Below are positions 1,107 through 62,267 of a stretch of DNA of 62,267 bases, in pieces. This stretch comes from Muribaculaceae bacterium (GTDB lineage: Bacteria; Bacteroidota; Bacteroidia; Bacteroidales; G3-4614), in assembly GCA_017546805.1 (NCBI GenBank), contig JAFYRT010000015.1, positions 1 to 62,267 on the forward strand, read 5' to 3'. The notes under the pieces are model-generated. The model was not told the origin of the DNA. It saw only the letters and a list, made by a program, of their open reading frames with translations, and made no database searches. A program made the translations under genes and the position numbers. Position 1 is the first letter of the stretch; every line of letters starts with the position of its first letter.

Positions 1107-3431
1107 ATGCAACCTTTAGATTTAAACAACTTAAACGAAAGTCAACGTAATGCAGTGGAGTTTTGCGATGGTGTTTCGCTTGTGATAGCCGGAGCAGGGT
1201 CGGGTAAAACACGCGTGCTTACACATAAAATTGCATATCTTTTGAATATGGGATATTCGCCATATTCAATTCTTGCATTAACCTTTACCAATAAGGCGGC
1301 AGACGAGATGAAAGCTCGTATTGCCACAATGATAGGAGGAGATGTGGCATCTCGAATATGGGCAGGAACATTTCACTCAATATTTTTGCGAATACTTCGC
1401 CCTTATGCAAACCGCTTGGGCTTTCCCTCAGATTTTACAATATATGATAGCTCCGACTCTCGCAGTCTAATAACCTCTATCATAAAGGAGATGAAGCTCG
1501 ACGATAAGGTATATAAACCTCGTAGTATAGCATCAATCATATCAAAAGCCAAGAATGCACTTATAACCCCCAATTCCTATGCATCAAACAGAGAGATAGT
1601 AGAGGACGACTTCAGGGCAAAGCGACCGGCAACAAAAGATATATACAGAGCCTATTGCGAGCGATGTCATCGAGCAGGAGCAATGGATTTTGATGACATA
1701 TTGTTATATACGAATATCCTTTTCCGCGATCATCCCGATGTAGTGGACCATTATGGCGAGATTTTCCGATATGTTTTGGTCGATGAGTATCAGGATATAA
1801 ACTTTGCGCAACACTTAATCGTAAAACAGATAGTAAAACGTTGCGGAAGATTGTGTGTGGTAGGAGACGATGCACAAAGCATATACTCATTCCGAGGTGC
1901 AAATATCAGCAATATTCTTAACTTGCAAAACGAATATGCGGGATGCAGAATATTCAAATTGGAGCAGAACTATCGCTCAACACAAATGATAGTGAATGCA
2001 GCCAACAGTCTAATTGCAAAAAACAAAGGGCAGATACCCAAAAATATATTCTCAGAGAATGAGAAGGGCGAGAAGGTAAAACTTGTAAAATCATATTCCG
2101 ATTACGAGGAGGCATATATGGTTGCAGGCTCAATAAGTGAGGTGCATTTACGATATGGCGATTCATATAACAATTTTGCAATACTTTACCGAACAAACGC
2201 ACAATCTCGAATATTTGAGGAGGCACTTCGTAAAAGAAATATCCCATATCGTATTTACGGAGGCATATCGTTTTATCAACGCAAGGAGATAAAAGATGTA
2301 ATAGCATATATTCGTATGGTACTGAATCCAAGTGACGAGGAGGCGTTAAAGCGAATAATAAACTATCCGGCAAGAGGTATTGGCGATACAACCGTAGGTA
2401 AGATAGCAGAGGCGGCAACGCTTCACTCACAAACCCTATGGACAATACTTTGCAATCCGCTTGAGTATGGAGTAAAAATAAATTCGGGAACACAATCAAA
2501 ACTAAAAACATTCTCAACGCTTATTGAGGAGTTGCAACAAGATGTGGCTGAGTTGGATGCTGCAGAATTTGTTGAAAAACTAATACGTAAAACAGGAATA
2601 TTTGCCGATGTATATGTCGATAAACTCCCCGAAAATATCAGCAAACAGGAGAACTTACAAGAGCTATTGAATGGTATAGTTGAGTTTTGCGATAACAGAA
2701 AAGAGAGTGGAGAGAGTGCAACAATAACAGATTTTCTTTCGGAAGTGTCGCTTGCAACCGACCAAGATAAAGGAGATGAGGCCGAGATTGATAAGGTAAC
2801 TCTGATGACTGTGCATGCAGCAAAAGGATTGGAGTTCGCAAACATATATATAGTTGGATTGGAGGAGAATCTCTTCCCCTCGTCAATGAGTATGGAAACG
2901 ATGAGCGAGTTGGAGGAGGAGCGTCGACTATTCTATGTGGCAATAACCCGTGCTGAAAAACGATGCACATTGTCGTATGCAGTATCGCGTTATCGCAACG
3001 GACAAACTACCGCTTCGCCACCAAGCCGATTTATAAAAGATTTGGATTTTCAATATATAAACGATACAACAGGCAGCTCGCAATTCCGCGAAGTGACAGT
3101 TTCACAACAACCAAGGGTACAAGTCATTAGACCGCAATCTACATTTGGAGGAGTGTCGTATAACACAACCGAGAGAGAAGAACCAAAACAAAACCTACGC
3201 TCAATGCGTTCGGCAATATATACGCAATCTCCCAAAACAGATGTTGAGTCAAAGACAAACGATGCGACACTACAAGTGGGTTCTCACATACGTCACGACC
3301 GCTTTGGAGAGGGTGAAGTATTATCAATGTCCGGAGTCGGAGATAACAGAAAAATTGAAGTGGAATTTAAAAATGTCGGTAAAAAGACACTATTGCTTAA
3401 ATTTGCACGATATACTATAATTAGTTGTTAG
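1107..3431 (+). CDS. uvrD: UvrD/PcrA ATP-dependent DNA helicase
   Basis: AGAGSGKT Walker A, LVDEYQD, VGDDAQSIYSFRGA, HAAKGLEF, EEERRLFYVAITRA, C-terminal Tudor-like tail. Confidence 0.93.
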   Translation: MQPLDLNNLNESQRNAVEFCDGVSLVIAGAGSGKTRVLTHKIAYLLNMGYSPYSILALTFTNKAADEMKARIATMIGGDVASRIWAGTFHSIFLRILRPYANRLGFPSDFTIYDSSDSRSLITSIIKEMKLDDKVYKPRSIASIISKAKNALITPNSYASNREIVEDDFRAKRPATKDIYRAYCERCHRAGAMDFDDILLYTNILFRDHPDVVDHYGEIFRYVLVDEYQDINFAQHLIVKQIVKRCGRLCVVGDDAQSIYSFRGANISNILNLQNEYAGCRIFKLEQNYRSTQMIVNAANSLIAKNKGQIPKNIFSENEKGEKVKLVKSYSDYEEAYMVAGSISEVHLRYGDSYNNFAILYRTNAQSRIFEEALRKRNIPYRIYGGISFYQRKEIKDVIAYIRMVLNPSDEEALKRIINYPARGIGDTTVGKIAEAATLHSQTLWTILCNPLEYGVKINSGTQSKLKTFSTLIEELQQDVAELDAAEFVEKLIRKTGIFADVYVDKLPENISKQENLQELLNGIVEFCDNRKESGESATITDFLSEVSLATDQDKGDEAEIDKVTLMTVHAAKGLEFANIYIVGLEENLFPSSMSMETMSELEEERRLFYVAITRAEKRCTLSYAVSRYRNGQTTASPPSRFIKDLDFQYINDTTGSSQFREVTVSQQPRVQVIRPQSTFGGVSYNTTEREEPKQNLRSMRSAIYTQSPKTDVESKTNDATLQVGSHIRHDRFGEGEVLSMSGVGDNRKIEVEFKNVGKKTLLLKFARYTIISC

Positions 3432-3524
3432 TTGTTAGTTGCGTTCGCAAATTCGTTAATATAAAAAATACCAATTTGTCTAATTGGTCTTATTGGACTA
3501 ATTAGAATAATAAAAAAATATAAG

Positions 3525-4658
3525 ATGAAAAGAGAAGAAATTCCTTCACCCTCGTTTGTACTTGAAGAGGAGAAGTTTCGTAAAAACCTTGCACTCATTC
3601 GTTCGGTAAAAGAGCGAGCAGGAGTAGATATAATAATGGCATTCAAAGCATTTGCCCTTTGGAAAGTATTTGATGTGGTACGCGAATATATCCCTTATAC
3701 AACAGCAAGCTCGCTATCCGAAGCGCGTCTTGCATATGAGGAGATGAAGTCGTATGCACACACCTACGCACCAGTATATAGCAATGAGGAGTTTCCCGAA
3801 ATTCTCTCTTGCAGTAGCCATATAACATTTAACTCGCTAACCCAATACGAACATTTCCGTTCACAAATAGAGGTATCGGAGCGTCATATATCATGCGGTG
3901 TACGTATTAACCCTGAATATTCACAAGTCGAAACCGACCTTTACAACCCTTGTGCTCCCGGTTCACGTCTTGGAGTAACAGCTGATAAGATGAAACAGCT
4001 CCCCGAGGGTATCGAGGGATTGCATTGCCATACATTGTGTGAGTCCGACTCATATATGTTGGCAAACGTATTGGAGAAGGTTGAGGAGCGATTTGGACAT
4101 CTATTGCCTCAAATAAAGTGGTTGAATATGGGAGGAGGGCACTTAATGACTCGCGAGGGATATGATACTGAACACCTAATATTATTGCTTCAAAACTTCA
4201 AAGCAAAATACCCTAACTTGCAAATAATATTGGAGCCGGGCAGTGCCTTTGCTTGGCGAGCAGGATACCTAAAATCAACAATTCTTGACATTGTTGAGAA
4301 CCGAGGAATTCGTACCCTTATGCTAAACGTATCGTTTGCATGTCACATGCCCGACTGTTTGGAGATGCCTTACCGCCCCGAAGTGGTAGGAGCGCACGTC
4401 CCTCACGGTGGCGAAACAGTTTATCGTTTAGGTGGAAACTCTTGCCTTAGTGGCGACTTTGTAGGTGATTACGCCTTTGACAAGGAACCACAAATTGGCG
4501 ATACAATCATTCTGTGCGATATGATGCACTATACAACAGTTAAAACAACAATGTTCAACGGAGTGTCGCATCCATCAATCGTGTGGGAAGCCGAAGACGG
4601 AACAGCAACCATACTCCGCCAATTCGGTTACGAGGATTATAAAAATAGAATGAGTTGA
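3525..4658 (+). CDS. nspC: carboxynorspermidine decarboxylase
   Basis: AFKAF PLP lysine, LYNPCAPGSRLG, NMGGGH, HMPDCLEMPY, YTTVKTTMFNG. Confidence 0.92.
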   Translation: MKREEIPSPSFVLEEEKFRKNLALIRSVKERAGVDIIMAFKAFALWKVFDVVREYIPYTTASSLSEARLAYEEMKSYAHTYAPVYSNEEFPEILSCSSHITFNSLTQYEHFRSQIEVSERHISCGVRINPEYSQVETDLYNPCAPGSRLGVTADKMKQLPEGIEGLHCHTLCESDSYMLANVLEKVEERFGHLLPQIKWLNMGGGHLMTREGYDTEHLILLLQNFKAKYPNLQIILEPGSAFAWRAGYLKSTILDIVENRGIRTLMLNVSFACHMPDCLEMPYRPEVVGAHVPHGGETVYRLGGNSCLSGDFVGDYAFDKEPQIGDTIILCDMMHYTTVKTTMFNGVSHPSIVWEAEDGTATILRQFGYEDYKNRMS

Positions 4659-4950
4659 TTAATAGTTGTTAGTTTTTAGTTGTTAGTTGTCAGCAAACGA
4701 CTTTAATGACACTAAATACCTAATACAAGTAACACTCTCAGATAATAGATTGAACCTTTTGTTAAGCAAAAAAATATTAATACTTTTGCAATAACAAGAA
4801 TATACAAATTATGAATTAATTACTAATTACTAATTTCTAATTGTGGCTTTAGTCACGAACTAATTAATATAGATTGCCTATGAAACATTAGCGTATAGTT
4901 GATACGCACATCTTGAACATATTGGAAAAAGCGTTTTAGCTTTATTCTTT

Positions 4951-5099
4951 CTCTTGCGAAAGTTTGGCGACTTAAAGACAACCTGAAAGAATAACGATAA
5001 AATGCTCACGTTTATACGTGGGCTTTTAGTTATTTGCAGGTTAGGGTTACGCCAAACACCCCGCGAGAGCAGATATGCTAAAAGTTCCGCGTTTTTTTT
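4951..5099 (+). promoter_or_regulatory. structured leader / attenuator-like element, copy 1
   Basis: Nested pairings CTCTTGCG/CGCGAGAG, GTTTGGCG/CGCCAAAC, AACCTG/CAGGTT, AATAAC/GTTATT, GCTCACG/CGTGGGC, then a segment complementary to the tip followed by a T tract. Confidence 0.65.
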
Positions 5100-5159
5100 G
5101 TGTGCGCATTTGAACATTATATTTAAGGAACTATAGATAATAATATAACAACAATAATT

Positions 5160-5663
5160 ATGCAAAAAAAATACACGAAACACATTTTGATGATGTTGTT
5201 GGTATTCATACCATTTATAGGCATTAAAGCCACTGACTATATGAATGTCTATCTTACATCGCAAGGCTCATTTCAATCTATCAATATAGATGAAATAGAC
5301 AAAATCACCTTCCCCTCTGAAGATGAAGTAAACATCACCATATCGGGTATGGCAACCCCAATGGCAATAGATAATATCGAAGTCATCACCTTTGGCAATA
5401 CCAATATCACCGCCATAGAGGAGAGTGAAGCCAAAGTTGCCGAAATAGATATAACCTACTTAAAAGAAAGCGGTGAGATAAAAGTAACCACACCCGAGGC
5501 AATCAATCTTGTACACCTATACAATATGCAAGGAGTATTGATGCAAACACAAGCACCAAATACCACAGTTGCAACACTCAATGTAGGCGGCTGTCCAAGT
5601 GGAATATATATAGTAGCAGTACAATCAAACGGAAAAACAGAGATAAAGAAGATTATAAAATAG
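5160..5663 (+). CDS. small secreted protein with T9SS C-terminal sorting domain
   Basis: Signal peptide, two I-D-x-I-x-x-I-T-F repeats, C-terminal LYNMQG...GIYIVAV...KKIIK typical of type A CTD. Confidence 0.8.
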   Translation: MQKKYTKHILMMLLVFIPFIGIKATDYMNVYLTSQGSFQSINIDEIDKITFPSEDEVNITISGMATPMAIDNIEVITFGNTNITAIEESEAKVAEIDITYLKESGEIKVTTPEAINLVHLYNMQGVLMQTQAPNTTVATLNVGGCPSGIYIVAVQSNGKTEIKKIIK

Positions 5664-5750
5664 TTGAGGAACATTCGTTCCTCGAACCCGCTATCGTTCG
5701 GCATAATTTAATAAACTAAACTATGCTCTCACTTAATTGCGGCTTTGTTA
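5662..5750 (+). repeat. intergenic hairpin repeat family A
   Basis: AGTTGAGGAACATTCGTTCCTCGAACC is identical to 6667-6693 and is followed by the family core ...CGG-stem-AATAAA-stem-CTCTCRCTTA. Confidence 0.7.
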
Positions 5751-5871
5751 GTTTTTAGTTGTACGGTACTTCGTACCTTAGTTTTTAGCAAATAAAGACT
5801 CTAACAACTAACAACTACCCGCAGGGCGGCAGAGTTTTGCGATGCCGACAACAAACAACTCAAAAAAAAGA

Positions 5872-6645
5872 ATGATGAAAACAAGACTAATCACATTGCT
5901 AATAGCAATAACAACTATAATAGGTAGTGCTTATGCACAAAAGAAAATAGAAGTATATAAAAATGGAGAAGTAGTATATAGTGAATATATTACAGATATA
6001 GATAGTATAAAATTTAAAGAGCAAACAGCGCCTCTGCCCAATACCGAAAACGGACACGAATATGTTGATCTTGGATTGCCTTCAGGAATTAAATGGGCAA
6101 CCTGTAATGTGGGAGCAAATTCACCCGAGGAGTATGGCGATTACTTTGCATGGGGCGAAACCGAGCCAAAAGATTATTATTCTTGGAGTACCTACAAATA
6201 TTGTAATGGTTCATATGATACAATAACCAAATATTGTACAAATTCAAAATATGGCACAGTAGATAATAAAACAACCCTTGAACTCTCAGACGATGCTGCT
6301 CGTGTAAATTGGGGAGGCAGTTGGCGCATGCCAACAAGAGCAGAACAAGATGAATTAGAAAATACCTCAAATTGTACATGGATATGGACCACACAAAACG
6401 GAGTAAAAGGATATAAGGTAACAAGCGTAAAGAACGGTAACTCCATATTTCTTCCTGCGGCGGGCCTTCTCGGCGGCGACGATCTCGACGTTGCAGGCGA
6501 CCTCGGCCGCTTCTGGTTGAATTCGCTCGACCCGACCCCGAACCGCTGCTACAACGCCTCCAACATGGCCTTCAATTCGTTCAACGCGTCCGGGACCTAC
6601 GAATACCGTTACTACAGGCGGTCTGTCCGCGCAGTCTGCGAGTAG
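5872..6645 (+). CDS. exported protein with C-terminal CLec-fold (DUF1566/Fib_succ_major-like) domain; putative DGR target 1
   Basis: Start probably at MMKTR (ORF track starts at 5842); signal peptide; HEYVDLGLPSGIKWATCNVGA...GDYFAWGE...WRMPT...IFLPAAG...SVRAVCE; GC-rich 3' end. Confidence 0.85.
   Translation: MMKTRLITLLIAITTIIGSAYAQKKIEVYKNGEVVYSEYITDIDSIKFKEQTAPLPNTENGHEYVDLGLPSGIKWATCNVGANSPEEYGDYFAWGETEPKDYYSWSTYKYCNGSYDTITKYCTNSKYGTVDNKTTLELSDDAARVNWGGSWRMPTRAEQDELENTSNCTWIWTTQNGVKGYKVTSVKNGNSIFLPAAGLLGGDDLDVAGDLGRFWLNSLDPTPNRCYNASNMAFNSFNASGTYEYRYYRRSVRAVCE
6466..6645 (+). other. DGR variable region VR1 with IMH-like 3' end
   Basis: Abrupt GC-rich shift, NNC/NNT codons, and differences from the paralog at 61428-61601 concentrated in codon positions 1-2. 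Confidence 0.8.
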
Positions 6646-6666
6646 AAATTAAACATGTTTAATTTC

Positions 6667-6757
6667 AGTTGAGGAACATTCGTTCCTCGAACCTGCTCAT
6701 GCTCGGTAGTGCTTAAATAAATTTATCATTACTCTCGCTTATTCGCAGATTTGTTAG
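6667..6757 (+). repeat. intergenic hairpin repeat family A
   Basis: Homologous to 5662-5750 and 38825-38885; preceded by a perfect 22-bp palindrome at 6645-6666. Confidence 0.7.
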
Positions 6758-6890
6758 TTGAACGAGGGTGATTCTTTTGATACTTTTGTGTCATACTTAT
6801 TAGCCTAAATGCTCTAATAAGACCTAATGACTCAATTGACCTTATAATCCTGATTGTCTTCTTAAAAGATAATTTTATATGATAATACAC

Positions 6891-6924
6891 AAAAAACCAT
6901 TGCTTTTTATGGCAATGGTTTTTT
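6891..6924. terminator. bidirectional intrinsic terminator between target 1 and recA
   Basis: AAAAAACCATTGC-loop-GCAATGGTTTTTT. Confidence 0.75.
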
Positions 6925-6987
6925 CATAACTACCAATAAAAATTTATATAATTCGCTATTAACTATATTAATAAGCCTATCTTTGTT

Positions 6988-7047
6988 GATTTTGCTCTCG
7001 CCAACAATGCACAAATAAATGCATTGTATTCGCTTAATCACAAAATT
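6988..7047 (+). repeat. degenerate family A repeat
   Basis: GCTCTCGC..CAATGC-ACAAATAAAT-GCATTG..TTCGCTTAATCACAAAATT aligns to 38825-38885. Confidence 0.55.
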
Positions 7048-7073
7048 CCTAATTTCTAATTCCTCATTCCTAA

Positions 7074-8093
7074 TTATTTTTTTATCGCCTCCATAATCAA
7101 ACCTTCCAACTCCTCTGCAAGTTCGGGATTATCCATAACCATACGTTTTGCAGCGTCGCGTCCTTGACCAAGTTTAGTGTCGCCGTAAGCAAACCAAGAA
7201 CCGCTTTTCTTAATAATACCATACTCAACACCAAGGTCAATTATCTCTCCCGATTTAGAGATACCTTCGCCAAACATAATGTCGAACTCTGCTTTGCGGA
7301 ATGGGGGAGCAACTTTGTTCTTAACAATTTTAACACGAGTTTGGTTACCAATAACATCCTCGCCATCTTTAATTTGAGATACTCTGCGAATGTCTATACG
7401 AACTGAAGAGTAGAACTTCAATGCGTTACCACCTGTTGTAGTTTCGGGGTTACCGAACATAACACCAATTTTTTCGCGCAATTGGTTGATGAATATACAA
7501 GTTGTGTTTGTTTTGCTGATTGTTGAAGTAAGTTTACGCAAAGCCTGGCTCATCAAGCGAGCTTGCAAACCTACGCGGTTGTCGCCCATATCACCCTCCA
7601 ACTCTGCTTTAGGAGTAAGAGCCGCAACAGAGTCAATAACAACAATGTCAACTGCCGACGATCTGATTAGTTGGTCGGCAATCTCCAATGCTTGCTCTCC
7701 ACTGTCGGGCTGAGAAATCCAAAGATTTTCAACGTCAACACCAAGTTTTTCGGCATAGAAACGGTCGAATGCATGCTCAGCGTCAATGATTGCTGCAATA
7801 CCACCATTTTTTTGAGCTTCGGCAATGGCGTGGATGGCCAATGTTGTTTTACCTGATGATTCGGGACCATATATTTCAATAACTCTTCCTCTTGGATAAC
7901 CTCCAACGCCAAGTGCGGCGTTGAGAGCAATTGAACCTGTTGATATAACGGCAACCTCTTCAACCATATCGTCGCCAAGTTTCATGATAGAACCTTTTCC
8001 GTAGCTTTTCTCAATTTTGTCCATTGCTGCTCTAAGAGCTTTAAGTTTATCCTCAGAGACTGTAACTTTTACTTTTTTCTCTTCGCTTTCCAT
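7074..8093 (-). CDS. recA: recombinase RecA
   Basis: [40 protein letters not shown]. Confidence 0.99.
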
Positions 8094-56683: not shown

Positions 56684-57565
56684 ATGAAAAAGTTAAGAGT
56701 AATAATTGTATTGATGTTATTAGTGGTAGCATCGGTAGCTTATGCAGAACCATTAAGTCTGCAAAACTCAAAATCCAAGAATAATGAGTATAACAAGTTT
56801 TCATTCCGTATTCAAGCAGGAGTGAATCTCTCTAATACATCGGACGATGTATTTGATGAGACTCATACGTTGATAATAGACGATTTTGATGAATACATAA
56901 ACGTGGTACCTTCAGTGGGTTATAACGTAGGATTGAGATTAGACAAACAATTTAACAGATACTTTGCAATTCAAACAGGATTGGACTATACCTTTAAAGC
57001 AGTAGAAATCTTTACAGAGTATAAATTAGATTTCCCAAGCGGAGAATACATCTATTGTAAAGATGAAGAAAAATATTCATTCCACTATCTTCAAATACCA
57101 TTGATGGTAGGAGCTAGATGCGACTTTGATTGTAACGTTCCCGTACAACTACAATTCAATACAGGACCATACATTGCTGTTGCATTGGCAGGAAAGCATA
57201 AAGTAGATGCCTATTTCGAAGAAAAAATCGCGGATGGTTACAATCCCACAACAGGAAGATATACATATACAACAACTAATGCGTCAGAAAAATATTCTCA
57301 AAATGCATTCGGGGATATAAACGACAACGAAAAAGCAGAGAGAATCGAAGATGAAGTATTGGGACTAAAAAGATTTGATATAGGTTGGAGATTTGACGTA
57401 GGAGTGGATATAAACAAATTTTATATAGGAGTAGCTTACGATTTAGGATTCTTTGATATCCAAAACGAGCAAGTAAAGAAAGAATATAAAAAGATCTATG
57501 GTGCAGGAAATTATGAACCATTCACAACAAGTAGCGCTTCATTTAACGTAGGTTACAGATTCTAA
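56684..57565 (+). CDS. outer membrane beta-barrel (porin family / OMP_b-brl_2-like)
   Basis: Signal peptide, AGVNLS, YLQIPL, GPY, terminal VGYRF. Confidence 0.82.
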   Translation: MKKLRVIIVLMLLVVASVAYAEPLSLQNSKSKNNEYNKFSFRIQAGVNLSNTSDDVFDETHTLIIDDFDEYINVVPSVGYNVGLRLDKQFNRYFAIQTGLDYTFKAVEIFTEYKLDFPSGEYIYCKDEEKYSFHYLQIPLMVGARCDFDCNVPVQLQFNTGPYIAVALAGKHKVDAYFEEKIADGYNPTTGRYTYTTTNASEKYSQNAFGDINDNEKAERIEDEVLGLKRFDIGWRFDVGVDINKFYIGVAYDLGFFDIQNEQVKKEYKKIYGAGNYEPFTTSSASFNVGYRF

Positions 57566-57591
57566 TAAAACATATCATCAAAAACATAAAT

Positions 57592-57630
57592 GGAGGCTGT
57601 GTCAAAATGCAAATTTTGATATCAGCCTCT
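57592..57630 (+). terminator. hairpin downstream of OMP gene
   Basis: GAGGCTG-TGTCAAAAT/ATTTTGATA-CAGCCTC. Confidence 0.55.
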
Positions 57631-57633
57631 TAA

Positions 57634-57745
57634 GATTTGTAAGAATTGATAAAATACAAGGCGTTTAAATTTAGGGCGAAAGGAGTGTACTTATGTACAT
57701 GACTGAGCCCTAATATTGAAAACAACACAGTAGTTTGTCAATTAT
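57634..57745 (-). repeat. structured intergenic repeat family B
   Basis: Reverse complement aligns with 42078-42186. Confidence 0.65.
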
Positions 57746-57988
57746 GACACATCGCCTTGTTTCTATAATTTTTGTAAAAAATATTTCACTGTAAATCAAT
57801 CTTTTAATTTTCGAAATAAAATAGAATGTTGTACTATTAAAAAAAAATGTTCAATTTTGTATAAATAAAGTTCTAATATTAAAGTATATAAGAAAAATAG
57901 CAAACAAAGAGTATACAAGAAAATAAAACAATATAAAAACACTAAAATAACTATTTGTTAAATAAAGCATTAGCTAACTATTCGGTAT

Positions 57989-58137
57989 CATCCTAAAACC
58001 TGAGAAATTTTAGAAAAAACAATACCTCGAATAAGTCGGTAAAATGCTCACGTATCTATACGTGGGCTTGGCTTATCCGGTATTGTGGGCAATCTCAGGG
58101 CCTAAGGATGTGGATAATGTCAAGTCCACATTTTTTT
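57989..58137 (+). promoter_or_regulatory. structured leader / attenuator-like element, copy 3
   Basis: CATCCT/AGGATG, CCTGAGA/TCTCAGG, ACAATACC/GGTATTGT, GCTCACGTA/TACGTGGGC; terminator ATGTGGA/TCCACAT plus T tract. Confidence 0.7.
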
Positions 58138-58190
58138 GTCCTAAGTAACCCATAATAGAGTAGGAGAGTCAATGCAAAAACACGTAAGAT

Positions 58191-58403
58191 ATGGAGCAAA
58201 TACACATTGGCTCAATAATTCGTTGCGAGTTACGCAAACAGAATAGGAGTAATCGCTGGTTGGCAGATCAAATTGGGGTGATACCACGCACCATAAACAA
58301 AATATTCTTGAAGCAAGATATGGATACGACACAACTCTTTCGTATCTCGAAAGCGATGCAAGTTGATTTCTTTTCATATTACTCAAAAGAGTTAAAAAAA
58401 TAA
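58191..58403 (+). CDS. small XRE-family helix-turn-helix protein
   Basis: IHIGSII...WLADQIG...INKIF...ISKAMQVDFF. Confidence 0.8.
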   Translation: MEQIHIGSIIRCELRKQNRSNRWLADQIGVIPRTINKIFLKQDMDTTQLFRISKAMQVDFFSYYSKELKK

Positions 58404-58426
58404 TCTCTTTTTATCCTAAACAACCA

Positions 58427-58464
58427 TATAGTCCAAAATGGGCAATTGCCCATTTTGGACTATA
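58427..58464. promoter_or_regulatory. perfect 38-bp palindrome, candidate operator
   Basis: TATAGTCCAAAATGGGCAATTGCCCATTTTGGACTATA; -7 element TAATTTTG at 58496-58503. Confidence 0.6.
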
Positions 58465-58539
58465 ATGATTCTTGTACTATATATTATCTTACATATAATT
58501 TTGAAAATATTAATATTACGTAAATTTATTTTGTGAAAT

Positions 58540-59172
58540 ATGAAAAATAAAATCAAAGAAGTATTGGAAAACTTAAAATTGAAACGTAAAGCATTCTGTT
58601 CAGAAGCAGATTTTCAGTTTGAGTTTGCCTGGGAATTACAAAAAAAATTACCTAAAGCAAAAATCAGATTAGAACGTCCAATATTAATAAATAAAGTTTA
58701 TTATATAGATATTTGGCTAATATATGAAAATAAATATTACCCTATTGAATTAAAGTATAAAACGAGGTTGTCAACTATTATAGATAATGGAGAGGAGATA
58801 GAGTTGGCTAATCATGCGGCAGTAGATTTAGGTTGTTATGCCTATATAAAAGATATTGTTCGTATTGAAGAAATTAAAAACAACATGGGCGAGGAAAAAT
58901 TTGGTGGAGGATTTGCAATAATGCTTACAAATGAACCATTATATTATAGGGATACAAAAAGAAATTCATCATATCAGCAATTTAAAATCTTTGAAAATAG
59001 GGAGATAACGGGTAACCTTTCATGGGGCAAAACACAAACAGGAAATGAATTTGCATTGAAGAAGAAGTTTCCACCTTTAAATCTTAAAGATAAATATAAA
59101 ATATCATGGTTCGACTATTCTATTGTTAATAACAGTCCAAATTTCAAATATACAATAACACACATAAAATAA
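58540..59172 (+). CDS. hypothetical protein with PD-(D/E)XK nuclease-like motifs
   Basis: SEADFQ, LE, IDIW, IELKYK; very AT-rich. Confidence 0.65.
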   Translation: MKNKIKEVLENLKLKRKAFCSEADFQFEFAWELQKKLPKAKIRLERPILINKVYYIDIWLIYENKYYPIELKYKTRLSTIIDNGEEIELANHAAVDLGCYAYIKDIVRIEEIKNNMGEEKFGGGFAIMLTNEPLYYRDTKRNSSYQQFKIFENREITGNLSWGKTQTGNEFALKKKFPPLNLKDKYKISWFDYSIVNNSPNFKYTITHIK

Positions 59173-59174
59173 TT

Positions 59175-61601
59175 ATGAAACACAAACACTTATTAAAAAG
59201 CATACTGTCAGTAATGCTGATAACATTAACTACAGTAATATCAATATTTATAACCTCATGTGCCGAGGAGGAAGAAAACAAATCAAATACAACCCCATCT
59301 GTGTGCAAAGTCTCAGTAATTAGCGGAGAGGGCGGAACAGCAAAAACATCTGAAACAGAATTAATACCCGGTTGGGAGGTAACCATAACCGCAACACCCG
59401 AAGAGACCTACCGTTTTGTAAACTGGACAGTAGGCGGGAAAGAGGTATCAAAAGAAAACCCATATACAATAGCGATAAACCAAAATACACAATTTAAAGC
59501 CAATTTTGAGAAAGATAACTACACCCTCAAAGTAACCGCGGGCGAGGGAGGTGTTGTAAAAGCATCACAAGAGGGCATTGTGTTAAACGGAACAAAAGTC
59601 ACTCTTACTGCTACTCCAAAAGAAGGCTATGGTTTTGTAAATTGGACAGTAAACGGAGAAGAGGTATCAAAAGAAAACCCCTACACAGTAACAATAACAA
59701 ACGACATAGAGTATGTCGCCAACTTCATAACCCATAAAGTAACCGTAATAGCAGGTGAAGGCGGTACAGCCGAAACATCAAAAACACAAGCAGGACATAA
59801 CGAACAAGTAACCCTTACAGCCACTCCCAATGATGGCTACAGCTTTGTCAATTGGACAGTAAACGGAGAAGAAGTATCAAAAGAAAACCCCTACACAGTA
59901 ACCGTAACAAAAGATGTAGAGTATATTGCTAACTTCATAACCCATAAAGTAACTGTAATAGCAGGTGAAGGTGGTACAGCCACAGTCTCAAAAACACAAG
60001 CAGGACATAATGAACAAGTCACTCTTACTGCTACTCCCAACGAAGGCTATAGTTTTGTAAATTGGACAGTAAACGGCGAGGAGGTATCTACATCTGCAAC
60101 ATACACAGTAACCGTAACAAAAGATGTAGAGTATGTCGCTAATTTTATCAGTTATAAAGTAACAGTATTGTCAGGCGAAGGTGGAACAGCCACAGCAAAT
60201 AAAACACAAGTAGGATATAACGGGCAAGTCACCCTCACTGCCACACCCAACGACGGTTATGGTTTTGTTAATTGGACAGTCAACGGAGAGGAAGTATCAA
60301 CCGCGAACCCATATACAGCGACAATAACAGCAAATACAGAGTTTAAAGCCAACTTTATCAGTTATAAAGTATCTGTAATAACAGGTGAGGGCGGAACGGC
60401 TACGGCAAATAAAACACAAGTATCCCCTAACGGACAAGTAACCCTCACCGCCATGCCAAAAGAAGGCTATAGCTTTGTCAATTGGATAGTGGACGGAGTT
60501 GAGGTTTCAAGACAAGCAACATACACCGCAACAATAACAGCAGATACAGAATTTAAAGCCAATTTTATCAGTTATAAAGTAACAGTATTGTCAGGCGAAG
60601 GCGGAACTGCTACAGCAAATAAAGCACAAGTAGGCTATAACGAACAAGTGACCCTCACCGCTACCCCTAACGATGGCTATAGCTTTGTCAATTGGACAGT
60701 AAACGGCGAGGAAGTATCAACATCTGCAACATATACCGCAACAATAACAGCAGATACAGAATTTAAAGCCAACTTTATTAGTTATAAAGTAACCGTAGTA
60801 TCAGGCGAAGGCGGAACCGCCAAAGTGGATAAAACGCAATTAGCACATAACGGACAAGTAACCCTCACCGCCACACCTGAAGAAGATTACTTCTTTGTCA
60901 ATTGGACAGTAAACGGAGAGGAGATATCAACATCTGCAACATATACCGCAACAATAACAGCAGATACAGAATTTAAAGCTAATTTTAGAGAAACATATAA
61001 ACCTACAGGATTAGAAAATGGAAAAGGTTTTGTAGAACTCGGTTTGCCAAGTGGACTAAAATGGGCAACATGCAATGTGGGAGCAACCACACCCGAAGGT
61101 TACGGCGATTACTTTGCTTGGGGCGAGACAGAACCAAAAGACTACTACGATTGGAGCACCTACAAATATTGTAATGGTTCTTCATCAACAATGACCAAAT
61201 ACTATACAAAATCAAGTTATGGCACAGTAGATAATAAAACCACCCTTGAACTCGCGGACGATGCCGCGCATGTAAATTGGGGAGGTAATTGGCGAATGCC
61301 AACAATTGAAGAACAAAAAGAGTTATTGAATAATTGCACTTGGACATGGACAACACAAAACGGAGTAAACGGGTGTAAAGTAACAAGTAAAAGGAACGGT
61401 AACTCCATTTTTCTTCCTGCTGCGGGCTATCGCTACGGCGACAATCTCGACAGTGCGGGCAGTTACGGCTACTACTGGTCGGGTTCGCTCGGCACGTACT
61501 ACAGCGACTACGCTTACCTCGTGTACTTCAGTTCGGACAGCGTAGGTTGGGAGTCCTACGACCGTTGCAGCGGGCAGTCTGTCCGCGCAGTATGCGAGTA
61601 G
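59175..61601 (+). CDS. surface lipoprotein: 8 InlB-B-like repeats plus C-terminal CLec-fold domain; putative DGR target 2
   Basis: Lipobox ITSC then acidic stretch; VTLTATP..GY.FVNWT repeats; C-terminal domain paralogous to 5872-6645. Confidence 0.88.
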   Translation: MKHKHLLKSILSVMLITLTTVISIFITSCAEEEENKSNTTPSVCKVSVISGEGGTAKTSETELIPGWEVTITATPEETYRFVNWTVGGKEVSKENPYTIAINQNTQFKANFEKDNYTLKVTAGEGGVVKASQEGIVLNGTKVTLTATPKEGYGFVNWTVNGEEVSKENPYTVTITNDIEYVANFITHKVTVIAGEGGTAETSKTQAGHNEQVTLTATPNDGYSFVNWTVNGEEVSKENPYTVTVTKDVEYIANFITHKVTVIAGEGGTATVSKTQAGHNEQVTLTATPNEGYSFVNWTVNGEEVSTSATYTVTVTKDVEYVANFISYKVTVLSGEGGTATANKTQVGYNGQVTLTATPNDGYGFVNWTVNGEEVSTANPYTATITANTEFKANFISYKVSVITGEGGTATANKTQVSPNGQVTLTAMPKEGYSFVNWIVDGVEVSRQATYTATITADTEFKANFISYKVTVLSGEGGTATANKAQVGYNEQVTLTATPNDGYSFVNWTVNGEEVSTSATYTATITADTEFKANFISYKVTVVSGEGGTAKVDKTQLAHNGQVTLTATPEEDYFFVNWTVNGEEISTSATYTATITADTEFKANFRETYKPTGLENGKGFVELGLPSGLKWATCNVGATTPEGYGDYFAWGETEPKDYYDWSTYKYCNGSSSTMTKYYTKSSYGTVDNKTTLELADDAAHVNWGGNWRMPTIEEQKELLNNCTWTWTTQNGVNGCKVTSKRNGNSIFLPAAGYRYGDNLDSAGSYGYYWSGSLGTYYSDYAYLVYFSSDSVGWESYDRCSGQSVRAVCE
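59300..60990 (+). repeat. intragenic tandem repeat, eight ~210-bp units
   Basis: Exact 210-nt period at 59731, 59941, 60151, 60361, 60571, 60781. Confidence 0.92.
61428..61601 (+). other. DGR variable region VR2 with IMH-like 3' end
   Basis: GC-rich, TAC/GAC/AGC/GGC codons, shared tail GTCTGTCCGCGCAGTmTGCGAGTAG. Confidence 0.8.
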
Positions 61602-61651
61602 TGTGCTTCGCTACAATTAGAAATTAGGAATGAGGAATTATGCGGGTAAGT

Positions 61652-61800
61652 GAGAGCAAAACAAGTTTACTTGAATTTTGCCGAACGTGAGCATAATCAA
61701 GAAACGCATGTTTCTTAATTAGAGATTAAGAGAGAGCAAAACAAGTTTACTTGAATTTTGCCGAACGTGAGCATAATCAAGAAACGTATGTTTCTTAATT
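61652..61800 (-). repeat. two tandem copies (69 bp, 80-bp period, 1 mismatch) containing a family A repeat in reverse orientation
   Basis: 61652-61720 versus 61732-61800. Confidence 0.85.
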
Positions 61801-61815
61801 GCAGATTTGTTAGAA

Positions 61816-61850
61816 TAACTGCCATAGGTTCTGTGAGCCTATGGCAGTTG
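61816..61850. terminator. strong hairpin downstream of target 2
   Basis: AACTGCCATAGGTTC-TGT-GAGCCTATGGCAGTT. Confidence 0.6.
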
Positions 61851-61853
61851 TAT

Positions 61854-61878
61854 GTAGGGACGTGGCATCGCTACGTCC
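61854..61878 (+). repeat. GTAG-type REP-like palindrome
   Basis: GTAG followed by GGACGTGGC-ATC-GCTACGTCC. Confidence 0.5.
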
Positions 61879-62267
61879 GCCAAGAATGGGGTTAAATATG
61901 GGTATGTAATGGACTGCTTGCAACCCTGTCTTTCAGACATATTTATTCCATCTGCTGAAGTAGCATAAAAATAGTAAACAACATTTTCTTTTTATTGGTG
62001 TCTGGTAAAAATTTTTACAACAAATATATTTGATTTACAATTAATACATTAAAAATGTTCTTATAAAGTAGGGGTTGTACTATTATTAGAAATCTATATG
62101 ATAGACACATTAGTCAGAACTTATAAATTTTTATAAACTTTTTGACCGCAAAAAGTTACAAAAACTCTCGCACCTGATATAAAACAGTCATTCAAATTTT
62201 TGTTCGGGAGTTCTTCGAACATCCCTCAGTCAATTTTCATTTGCCGTTACAGCTATTCCCTCGTTTG

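Follow-up and report, generated by a model that had tools for sequence, protein, structure and literature searches.

How does a gene come to carry the imprint of a diversity-generating retroelement (DGR) in a genome whose assembly yields no such element, and is the gene still being rewritten? The question is raised by a gene near the end of a 62,267-nt contig of a Muribaculaceae bacterium (JAFYRT010000015.1, contig C19 of assembly GCA_017546805.1), which was analysed over its whole length and is here called the window. The genome to which it belongs (G000) comprises 2.11 Mb in 75 contigs and is 96.63% complete. A first-pass annotation of the window proposed two DGR variable regions (VRs), one (VR1) in a short secreted protein (target 1) and one (VR2) in a protein on a lipoprotein stalk (target 2). 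Judged from its sequence, VR2 is a genuine DGR-type variable region, the product of mutagenic retrohoming. It is probably an orphaned and now frozen allele, one of 18 cassettes in 16 genes, and we file it as an orphan DGR-derived variable region because no reverse transcriptase (RT), template repeat (TR) or accessory gene was found in the G000 assembly.

The target-2 gene (59175..61601, plus strand; taken with its translation from the list of open reading frames) has an intact reading frame and encodes a predicted surface lipoprotein of 808 aa, which consists, in order, of a signal peptide, eight InlB B-repeats, a C-terminal C-type-lectin-fold domain and the terminus SVRAVCE. The signal peptide (59175..59261, plus strand) ends in the lipobox-like FITSC, with the codon of Cys29 at 59259-59261, and in the translation this cysteine is followed by the acidic run AEEEEN. 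Acidic residues after the lipoprotein cysteine are a surface export signal in Bacteroidota, and the product is predicted to be a Bacteroidota surface lipoprotein. The stalk (59374..60986, plus strand) is built from eight tandem repeats of ∼210 nt (direct-repeat families D1 and D2) of the InlB B-repeat/Flg_new_2 type. Pfam Flg_new_2, a divergent InlB B-repeat, scores 354.2 bits over 8 stretches against a cut-off of 23.6, so that the lipoprotein stalk of the first-pass annotation is borne out in both parts, the signal peptide up to Cys29 and the eight repeat units. The framework of the lectin domain follows (61002..61412, plus strand); it is A+T-rich and shows ordinary third-position divergence. 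At 61413 the base composition flips sharply from A+T-rich to G+C-rich and adenine-poor, and it stays so through to the stop codon. This second stretch is VR2 (61413..61599, plus strand), 187 nt at the 3′ end of target 2 that terminate at the stop codon and are homologous to the TRs of congeneric species, with adenine-derived variable positions from 61429 to 61597.

Pfam Lcl_C (PF07603, formerly DUF1566) matches residues 627-806 of target 2 with 28.5 bits, below its cut-off of 34.9. Among the paralogs, those on C48 (45.1 bits) and C36 (55.1 bits) pass and seven others fall below, and the target-2 domain, on these scores and on its modelled fold, is best called Lcl_C-like; NCBIfam returned no meaningful family. 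A structure model based on 17 close paralogs was unusable, with a predicted local distance difference test (pLDDT) score of 43, while an AF2 model made after adding 28 distant relatives from a profile search reached 96.4. At E ≤ 0.001 the profile search itself matched 38,528 cluster representatives, many of which contain several copies in tandem. With an exhaustive structural aligner the best match to the model was the Legionella Lcl C-terminal domain (8q4e; Z 8.8, root mean square deviation 2.8, 106 aligned residues, 21% identity), followed by Bdellovibrio Bd2740 (Z 8.5), TvpA (Z 7.4), Mtd (Z 7.3) and TaqVP (Z 7.3), with Z values at this level being middling by the aligner's own warning. The top rows also include FGE-like domains and many C-type-lectin-like domains, and one fold common to nearly all of them is persuasive for a C-type-lectin fold in the modelled domain. 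A Foldseek search of the PDB had no match at E ≤ 0.001 (the top meaningful one was again 8q4e, probability 0.84 over 42 columns), and a profile search of PDB sequences gave chance-level matches only (E 0.26 and 0.61). Approximately 58 residues at the end of the domain, modelled by AF2 as strands, are covered by the VR, which occupies the 3′ end of its target within a lectin-type fold that aligns with solved DGR proteins at a middling Z of 7.3-7.4. The tip of this fold would presumably bind a ligand.

The mutational pattern of VR2 was assessed among its G000 paralogs and against templates from the genus. Fifteen paralogous domains were aligned and 14 compared, after a divergent C36 copy was dropped; the C43 copy, open at its 3′ end, was left unaligned. 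In the framework, the mean pairwise difference at codon positions 1, 2 and 3 is 0.145, 0.143 and 0.352, and the A content is 35.1%. In the VR, the corresponding values are 0.336, 0.322 and 0.208, and the A content is 18.9%. The pattern is thus ordinary in the framework and inverted in the VR, in line with the codon-position signature noted in the first-pass annotation. The hypervariable codons end in C or T in nearly all copies, and at the variable positions A is more common than any other base. This is what the AAC and AAT codons of a DGR template would leave behind.

Templates of this kind exist in the genus. Among 12 genomes compared (G000 and 11 others), the DGR core is intact in two (G003 and G005) and decayed in one (G001). 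The RVT_1 family, which matched in 3 of 14 reference genomes used as controls, was matched in 4 of the 11 other genus genomes, two of them (G003 and G001) relevant here; the RTs of G009 and G010 were rejected as the DGR RT of the genus at 29% and 27% identity. The intact island of G003 (L015; G003:C5:178500-186500, features at 1798-6699, minus strand) is ∼5.8 kb long on a 310-kb contig and holds, in order, a gene with a type IX secretion system (T9SS) tail, a 671-aa target, a 187-aa MutS_I-like gene, the TR and a 384-aa RT. The assignment of the 384-aa protein is based on a match to RVT_1 and that of the 187-aa protein on a weak match to MutS_I. The TR has 187 nt with 54 A, and the adjacent VR differs from it at 20 of the 54 adenine columns and at none of the 133 others. 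The G005 system (L025), found with the RT as query, has the same module at a contig end, with an adjacent VR that differs from its TR at 29/57 adenine columns and 0/130 others. Both DGRs serve remote targets in trans in addition to the adjacent one, with at least two remote cognate VRs each: two in G003 carry one non-adenine mismatch each to the TR, and two in G005 carry 2 and 4. In the decayed locus of G001 (L016; G001:C43:1-4000, 113-1721), the target VR is followed by a MutS-like accessory gene cut to 82 aa and by an RT that lacks its first 49 residues and is 86% identical to the RT of G003; no TR is found there. The Avd family (PF05635) has no match anywhere in the G003 assembly, which is 85% complete. 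The island may therefore have an Avd-less architecture, in contrast to the DGRs with MutS-like accessory genes of a published survey considered below, which also carry avd.

The G000 copies can be set against these templates. Of their 63 highly variable columns, 45 fall on adenines of the G003 TR, which account for 54 of its 187 columns. VR2 itself mismatches the G005 TR at 31/57 adenine columns and 10/130 others, and the G003 TR at 31/54 and 21/133; it is cognate to neither. VR2 has an A at 4 of its 10 non-adenine mismatches to the G005 TR, and its own template may for this reason have had a few more adenines. The variation of VR2 and its paralogs thus lies at template adenines, mostly at positions 1 and 2 of AAC and AAT codons, on TRs that come from other species of the genus.

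The timing of the rewriting can be approached through an ortholog. Contig C34 of G008, the genome of a sister species, is syntenic with the window, with 92.8% identity over 56731-60987 and a 3′ flank in common (alignment A2), and encodes an ortholog of 876 aa, against 808 aa for target 2. Between VR2 and its counterpart, 34 of 59 adenine-type positions differ, as against 4 of 128 others. Over 61428-61577 in the VR, identity at codon positions 1, 2 and 3 is 0.64, 0.68 and 0.94, and over 61050-61418 in the framework it is 0.909, 0.851 and 0.711; the 3′ flank (61599-61726) is 97.6% identical. Two other VR pairs of G000 and G008 served as controls. They differ at 2/59 adenine-type and 5/128 other positions (C33 and L039) and at 3/59 and 6/128 (C2 and L047), as expected of VRs that, to judge by these counts, underwent no rewriting since the common ancestor. 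The excess of adenine-type differences in VR2 points to mutagenic retrohoming after the split of the two species, and we infer that VR2, its G008 counterpart or both were rewritten from one template signature in that interval. The target-2 lectin framework (61014-61418, compared with L034) is only 81% identical to the G008 ortholog, against 92.8% for the stalk and 97.6% for the downstream flank, a contrast that may reflect recombination between the cassette framework and paralogs.

The machinery that did the rewriting was sought throughout the G000 assembly. RVT_1 has no match in it, which at 96.63% completeness leaves absence from the organism unproven, and neither the DGR RT protein of G003 (at E ≤ 1) nor its MutS-like accessory protein was found there. 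DNA of the DGR core matches G000 at VRs only. A BLAST search with VR2 against all 75 contigs likewise returned other VRs and no TR, and an adenine-tolerant scan, in which each position accepts the VR2 base or A, found as its best non-self match another VR at 158/180 (87.8%) and no cognate TR. A strong PF05635 match on C10 was followed as a lead to Avd and rejected. This 117-aa gene (L001; G000:C10:393-746) encodes a four-helix bundle of the 23S rRNA IVP family amid type I restriction-modification genes and is unrelated to a DGR. No RT, TR, Avd or MutS-like accessory gene of a DGR is therefore on record in this assembly, and the two flanks of the 5.8-kb island of G003 lie ∼13 bp apart on an unbroken G000 contig, as an empty site. 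The search for a cognate TR was also extended to other sequence collections. An RT-based scan of metagenome contigs gave two loci (65% and 58% identity), with a best match to VR2 of 142/180; genome contigs gave five loci, the best being the G005 TR (170/180, not cognate); and none was found in viral contigs. The template predicted in the first-pass annotation fares unevenly, as it closely resembles the TRs of G003 and G005 but has no match in G000. That annotation had also tied its reading to a matching template and to an excess of variation at codon positions 1 and 2 among alleles; the template is missing from G000, and the excess is present in the comparison with the G008 ortholog.

The VRs of G000 also differ among themselves as those of an intact system do not. 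Within one genome, VRs served by an intact DGR differ at 1-4 of the 128 non-adenine positions, against 6-27 in G000. VR1 and VR2 belong to different non-adenine signature groups, the nearest G000 partner of VR2 has 7 such differences, and no other G000 VR bears its signature. Most of the non-adenine differences in G000 are C/G/T polymorphisms at third positions, which we take to be ordinary drift.

The 3′ flank is a further point of difference from served targets. In the Bordetella phage system, homing depends on an initiation sequence and on a nearby hairpin or cruciform. In the relatives of G000, a nested hairpin with a 13-bp outer stem, a 6-bp inner stem and a 4-nt loop lies ∼50 nt past the stop codon in 6/6 cognate VRs with the standard flank (G003 adjacent and remote, G005 adjacent and one remote, and G001 adjacent). 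The G003 flank folds as DNA at -24.1 kcal/mol (z -7.4); the fold of the VR2 flank (61585-61680) is weak, at -9.4 kcal/mol (z -1.3), and the nested hairpin of the relatives is absent from contig C19. Of the 3′ element of cognate VRs, only the 11-nt GAGTAGTGTGC (61596..61606, plus strand) is left in VR2, a possible remnant of a homing-initiation site by analogy with the Bordetella phage system. The place of the hairpin is occupied by a dispersed short intergenic repeat (61607..61646, plus strand). The 48-nt flank at 61599-61646 has 47 BLAST matches on 28 contigs, and the low-complexity intergenic motifs AATTAGGAATGAGGAATT and TTAGTTGTTAGTT recur there, at 7040-7080 and 4660-4850 of the window and on many contigs. 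Behind this repeat stand two tandem copies of an 80-nt repeat (61647..61806, plus strand; family D5), 95% alike, of which G008 has one copy (alignment A2). It has 14 matches, copies or parts, on 10 G000 contigs and looks like a small dispersed intergenic element of the miniature inverted-repeat (MITE-like) kind; an Rfam scan of 61500-62267 gave only sub-threshold noise from microRNA models on these copies. The hairpin persists after four other G000 cassettes (C33 at ∼21790, C48 at ∼2668, C60 at ∼1065 and C65 at ∼1301), displaced 165-345 nt downstream by inserted dispersed repeats.

The alternative that survives best is that VR2 is a live remote target, still rewritten by a DGR whose cognate TR, RT and accessory gene reside on DNA that the assembly lacks, be it a mobile island, a gap collapsed at a repeat or an unbinned contig. 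We consider this possible, if rather doubtful. It accounts for the adenine-specific divergence from the G008 ortholog, with few other differences (4/128) and a conserved 3′ flank (97.6%), and for an intact gene that retains GAGTAGTGTGC in common with cognate VRs. Within the genus, the core is carried by a variable 5.8-kb island whose genomic context differs, the G000 assembly is fragmented, and, according to a preprint on Bacteroides DGRs (10.1101/2024.11.15.621889), mobile elements and variants are prone to be lost in binning and assembly. However, no RT, MutS-like gene or TR turned up in family, protein, DNA and adenine-tolerant scans of G000, no second VR of this genome shares the non-adenine signature of VR2, whereas intact systems have sets within 1-4 differences, and the hairpin that follows all six standard-flank cognate VRs of G003, G005 and G001 is missing after VR2. 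A population check also counts, if little, against continued rewriting. It used assembled contigs of four (X1, X3, X4 and X5) of the 20 public runs listed, in which contigs are broken up by the family of paralogs. Identical 255-nt contigs spanning 61408-61662, and with them the same VR2 allele, were assembled in X1 and X3, two runs of one study; X4 and X5 gave no piece confidently assignable to VR2, as uncovered or differing parts are indistinguishable from paralogs.

Several points weigh against an orphaned, frozen VR2. Many VR loci lie near contig ends of the fragmented assembly (75 contigs, 96.63% complete), so a DGR core that bears repeats or is mobile could have been left out of the assembly or the bin, and the contig of the window itself stops 666 nt past VR2. 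The 255-nt contig cannot exclude minor variants, and the study behind it may be the source of the sample. One of the two frozen controls is weakened, since C33 and L039 have different 3′ flanks and are thus not a plain ortholog pair. G008, at 98% complete, is also without a DGR core despite the rewriting after the split, and none was found downstream of its ortholog, so that two independent losses or two assembly misses are needed, and misses are not unlikely. The A residues at 4 of the 10 non-adenine mismatches to the G005 TR may simply mean that the TR of VR2 was richer in adenine. We nevertheless consider VR2 presumably inactive at present.

Least of all survives the view that no DGR was ever involved and that positive selection on binding-site residues, with recombination among paralogous cassettes, made the pattern: although the domain family is very large and mostly without a known DGR link (the 38,528 cluster representatives above) and paralogs clearly swap segments (the framework being 81% and the stalk 92.8% identical to the syntenic ortholog), selection would neither fix third positions at C or T, nor purge A from constant positions, nor line the variable columns up with adenines in an independent TR (45/63), and as the machinery at work in the congeners leaves adenine-only mismatches between TR and VR on the same cassette, and third positions of the ortholog pair are 94% identical in the VR against 71% in the adjacent framework, this very improbable view is close to refuted.

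For an orphaned VR2, the following course of events may be proposed by extension from the relatives. An RT would copy an AAC/AAT-rich template RNA into cDNA, misreading adenines, and the cDNA would replace the 187-nt stretch, with non-adenine bases fixed and codon positions 1 and 2 randomised at ∼20 codons. VR2 would have acted as a remote target of a module made of target, MutS-like gene, TR and RT, and would have been rewritten after the split from the G008 species. With the diversifying module no longer present in the G000 assembly and the hairpin of live targets gone, VR2 would then have been left an orphan.

VR2 belongs to a large family of cassettes, of which target 1 is the other member in the window. 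The target-1 gene (5842..6645, plus strand), a short secreted form, encodes 267 aa and holds VR1 at ∼6451-6643. The two genes share direct repeats (6046-6345 with 61014-61313 at 80%; 6370-6534 with 61332-61496 at 78%), which agrees with the C-terminal paralogy at the DNA level that the first-pass annotation had noted. Their domains align with a mean column identity of 84% (alignment A1), and the constant tail given there as common to VR1 and VR2 is found, as both proteins end in SVRAVCE. A six-frame scan of G000 found 18 VRAVC motifs in 16 genes, BLAST agrees, and an extra partial cassette stands at the end of contig C43. Counted across the 12 genomes, there are 18 VR-like copies in G000 and 14 in G008; seven other genomes have 2-6 each, and three have none.

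In Pfam scans of the two targets and 13 further paralogs, the scaffolds include short secreted forms and stalks in which a lipoprotein-like signal precedes one to eight InlB B-repeats; proteins of C48, C43 and C36 (the last of 1,535 aa) hold two or more tandem cassettes. An 866-aa paralog (L052; G000:C33:18847-21444) joins the Lcl_C-like cassette to PEGA domains and an FGE-sulfatase domain (171 bits), and thus carries two different modules of the C-type-lectin fold. The idea of one cassette shuffled onto different display platforms is supported as a description.

Directly upstream of target 1, the window encodes a 167-aa protein (5160-5663) with a T9SS C-terminal sorting domain (Por_Secre_tail). 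A T9SS-tailed paralog (73% DNA identity) heads the DGR island in both G003 and G005, so that this gene seems to travel with the target cassette. In the window, the T9SS-tailed gene and target 1 both lie on a variable insert (4659-7073), whose flanking genes (3525-4658 and 7074-8093) are separated by 119 bp in G001, by 2.2 kb in G003 and by 3.7 kb in G009. The target-1 locus was considered as a former DGR site and rejected, because these flanking genes lie elsewhere in G003 and are adjacent in G001, and the similarity to the G003 island reflects paralogy of the T9SS-tailed gene and the target.

What do these findings mean for the annotation of such loci? A DGR signature in a gene does not imply a working DGR in its genome. 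Most DGR finders look for the RT and TR first; a finder of this kind would report none of the 18 G000 cassettes, though at least one of the cassettes was rewritten after the last speciation. We suggest annotating these proteins as Lcl_C-like C-type-lectin-fold surface lipoproteins or adhesins with a DGR-derived hypervariable tip. The genus forms a natural series, from intact (G003 and G005) through decayed (G001) to core-less genomes with large VR repertoires (18 in G000 and 14 in G008), that could be used to study the recruitment, retirement and fixation of DGR targets and the cis elements that a remote VR needs in order to be targeted. G005 holds the island in a genomic context other than that of G003, and the island is for this reason regarded as a variable element. 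It is conceivable, though on balance unlikely, that this compact, Avd-less 5.8-kb island is a 'hit-and-run' diversifier, which comes and goes between lineages of this uncultured genus of gut Bacteroidales, rewrites in trans those cassettes (up to 18) that keep the recognition elements and is then lost, leaving behind frozen, strain-specific surface binding specificities. Under such a scheme, small dispersed repeats inserted between VR and hairpin would retire cassettes from the diversification pool.

Among described systems, VR2 stands closest to the targets with CLec2 VRs ('category d'), which in the survey of Wu et al. (2018; PMC5758913) have weak mixed matches to DUF1566 and DUF823 as well as to Fib_succ_major, make up 14% of the surveyed DGRs and often bear lipoprotein signals; LdtA of Legionella pneumophila exemplifies the class. 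Target 2 resembles this class in its C-terminal VR within a C-type-lectin-fold domain, its weak Lcl_C/DUF1566 match and its lipoprotein signal, and it is borne on a stalk much as about half of the class carry appended adhesion or surface domains in that account. It departs from the class in its InlB B-repeat scaffold and in the lack of a TR or RT in the G000 assembly. MutS-like (MSL) accessory genes and remote targets are likewise described there, with at most seven non-adjacent targets (Treponema). The congeneric DGRs share the MutS-like gene with the Legionella element, and, like the Treponema DGR, those of G003 and G005 serve several remote targets in trans. The MSL-bearing DGRs covered in that account also contain avd (PMC5758913), whereas the G003 DGR has a MutS-like gene without a match to PF05635 in an assembly 85% complete.

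The C-type-lectin fold is shared with TvpA (Treponema denticola), Mtd (Bordetella phage) and TaqVP (Thermus) over 130-147 aligned residues. Sequence identity to them is only 8-13%, those proteins are of the FGE-sulfatase-like or Mtd subtypes, and their genomes hold a cognate TR and RT, while the G000 assembly does not. A parallel for the orphaned state comes from cyanobacteria, where Vallota-Eastman et al. (2020; PMC7517822) describe CLec paralogs that are dispersed, keep remnants of TR-VR homology and have no RT nearby; they suggest that diversification components are removed once a variant is selected. As in the cyanobacterial genes of that account, the CLec cassette of G000 is duplicated and dispersed on varied N-terminal domains, and some copies retain only remnant homology. 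Unlike what is related there, a whole assembly here is without the core, 18 copies lie within 2.1 Mb, and the rewriting is dated by an ortholog. The DGRs of gut Bacteroidales offer a third comparison. They are transferred horizontally among Bacteroides on integrative and conjugative elements (ICEs) according to the preprint cited above (10.1101/2024.11.15.621889), and they share with the present system horizontal movement and a VR at the C-terminus of surface adhesin-like proteins; their targets are pilin-like and their DGRs present and active in the genomes studied, in contrast to the Lcl_C-like domain on an InlB stalk found here. Less usual, in the light of these systems, are the 18-copy repertoire in 2.1 Mb, the core missing from two near-complete assemblies that nonetheless record rewriting after speciation, and the apparent lack of Avd in the DGR of the genus. 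DUF1566/Lcl_C-type targets, remote targets and paralogs with remnant homology have all been described before, and VR2 itself fits these known categories.

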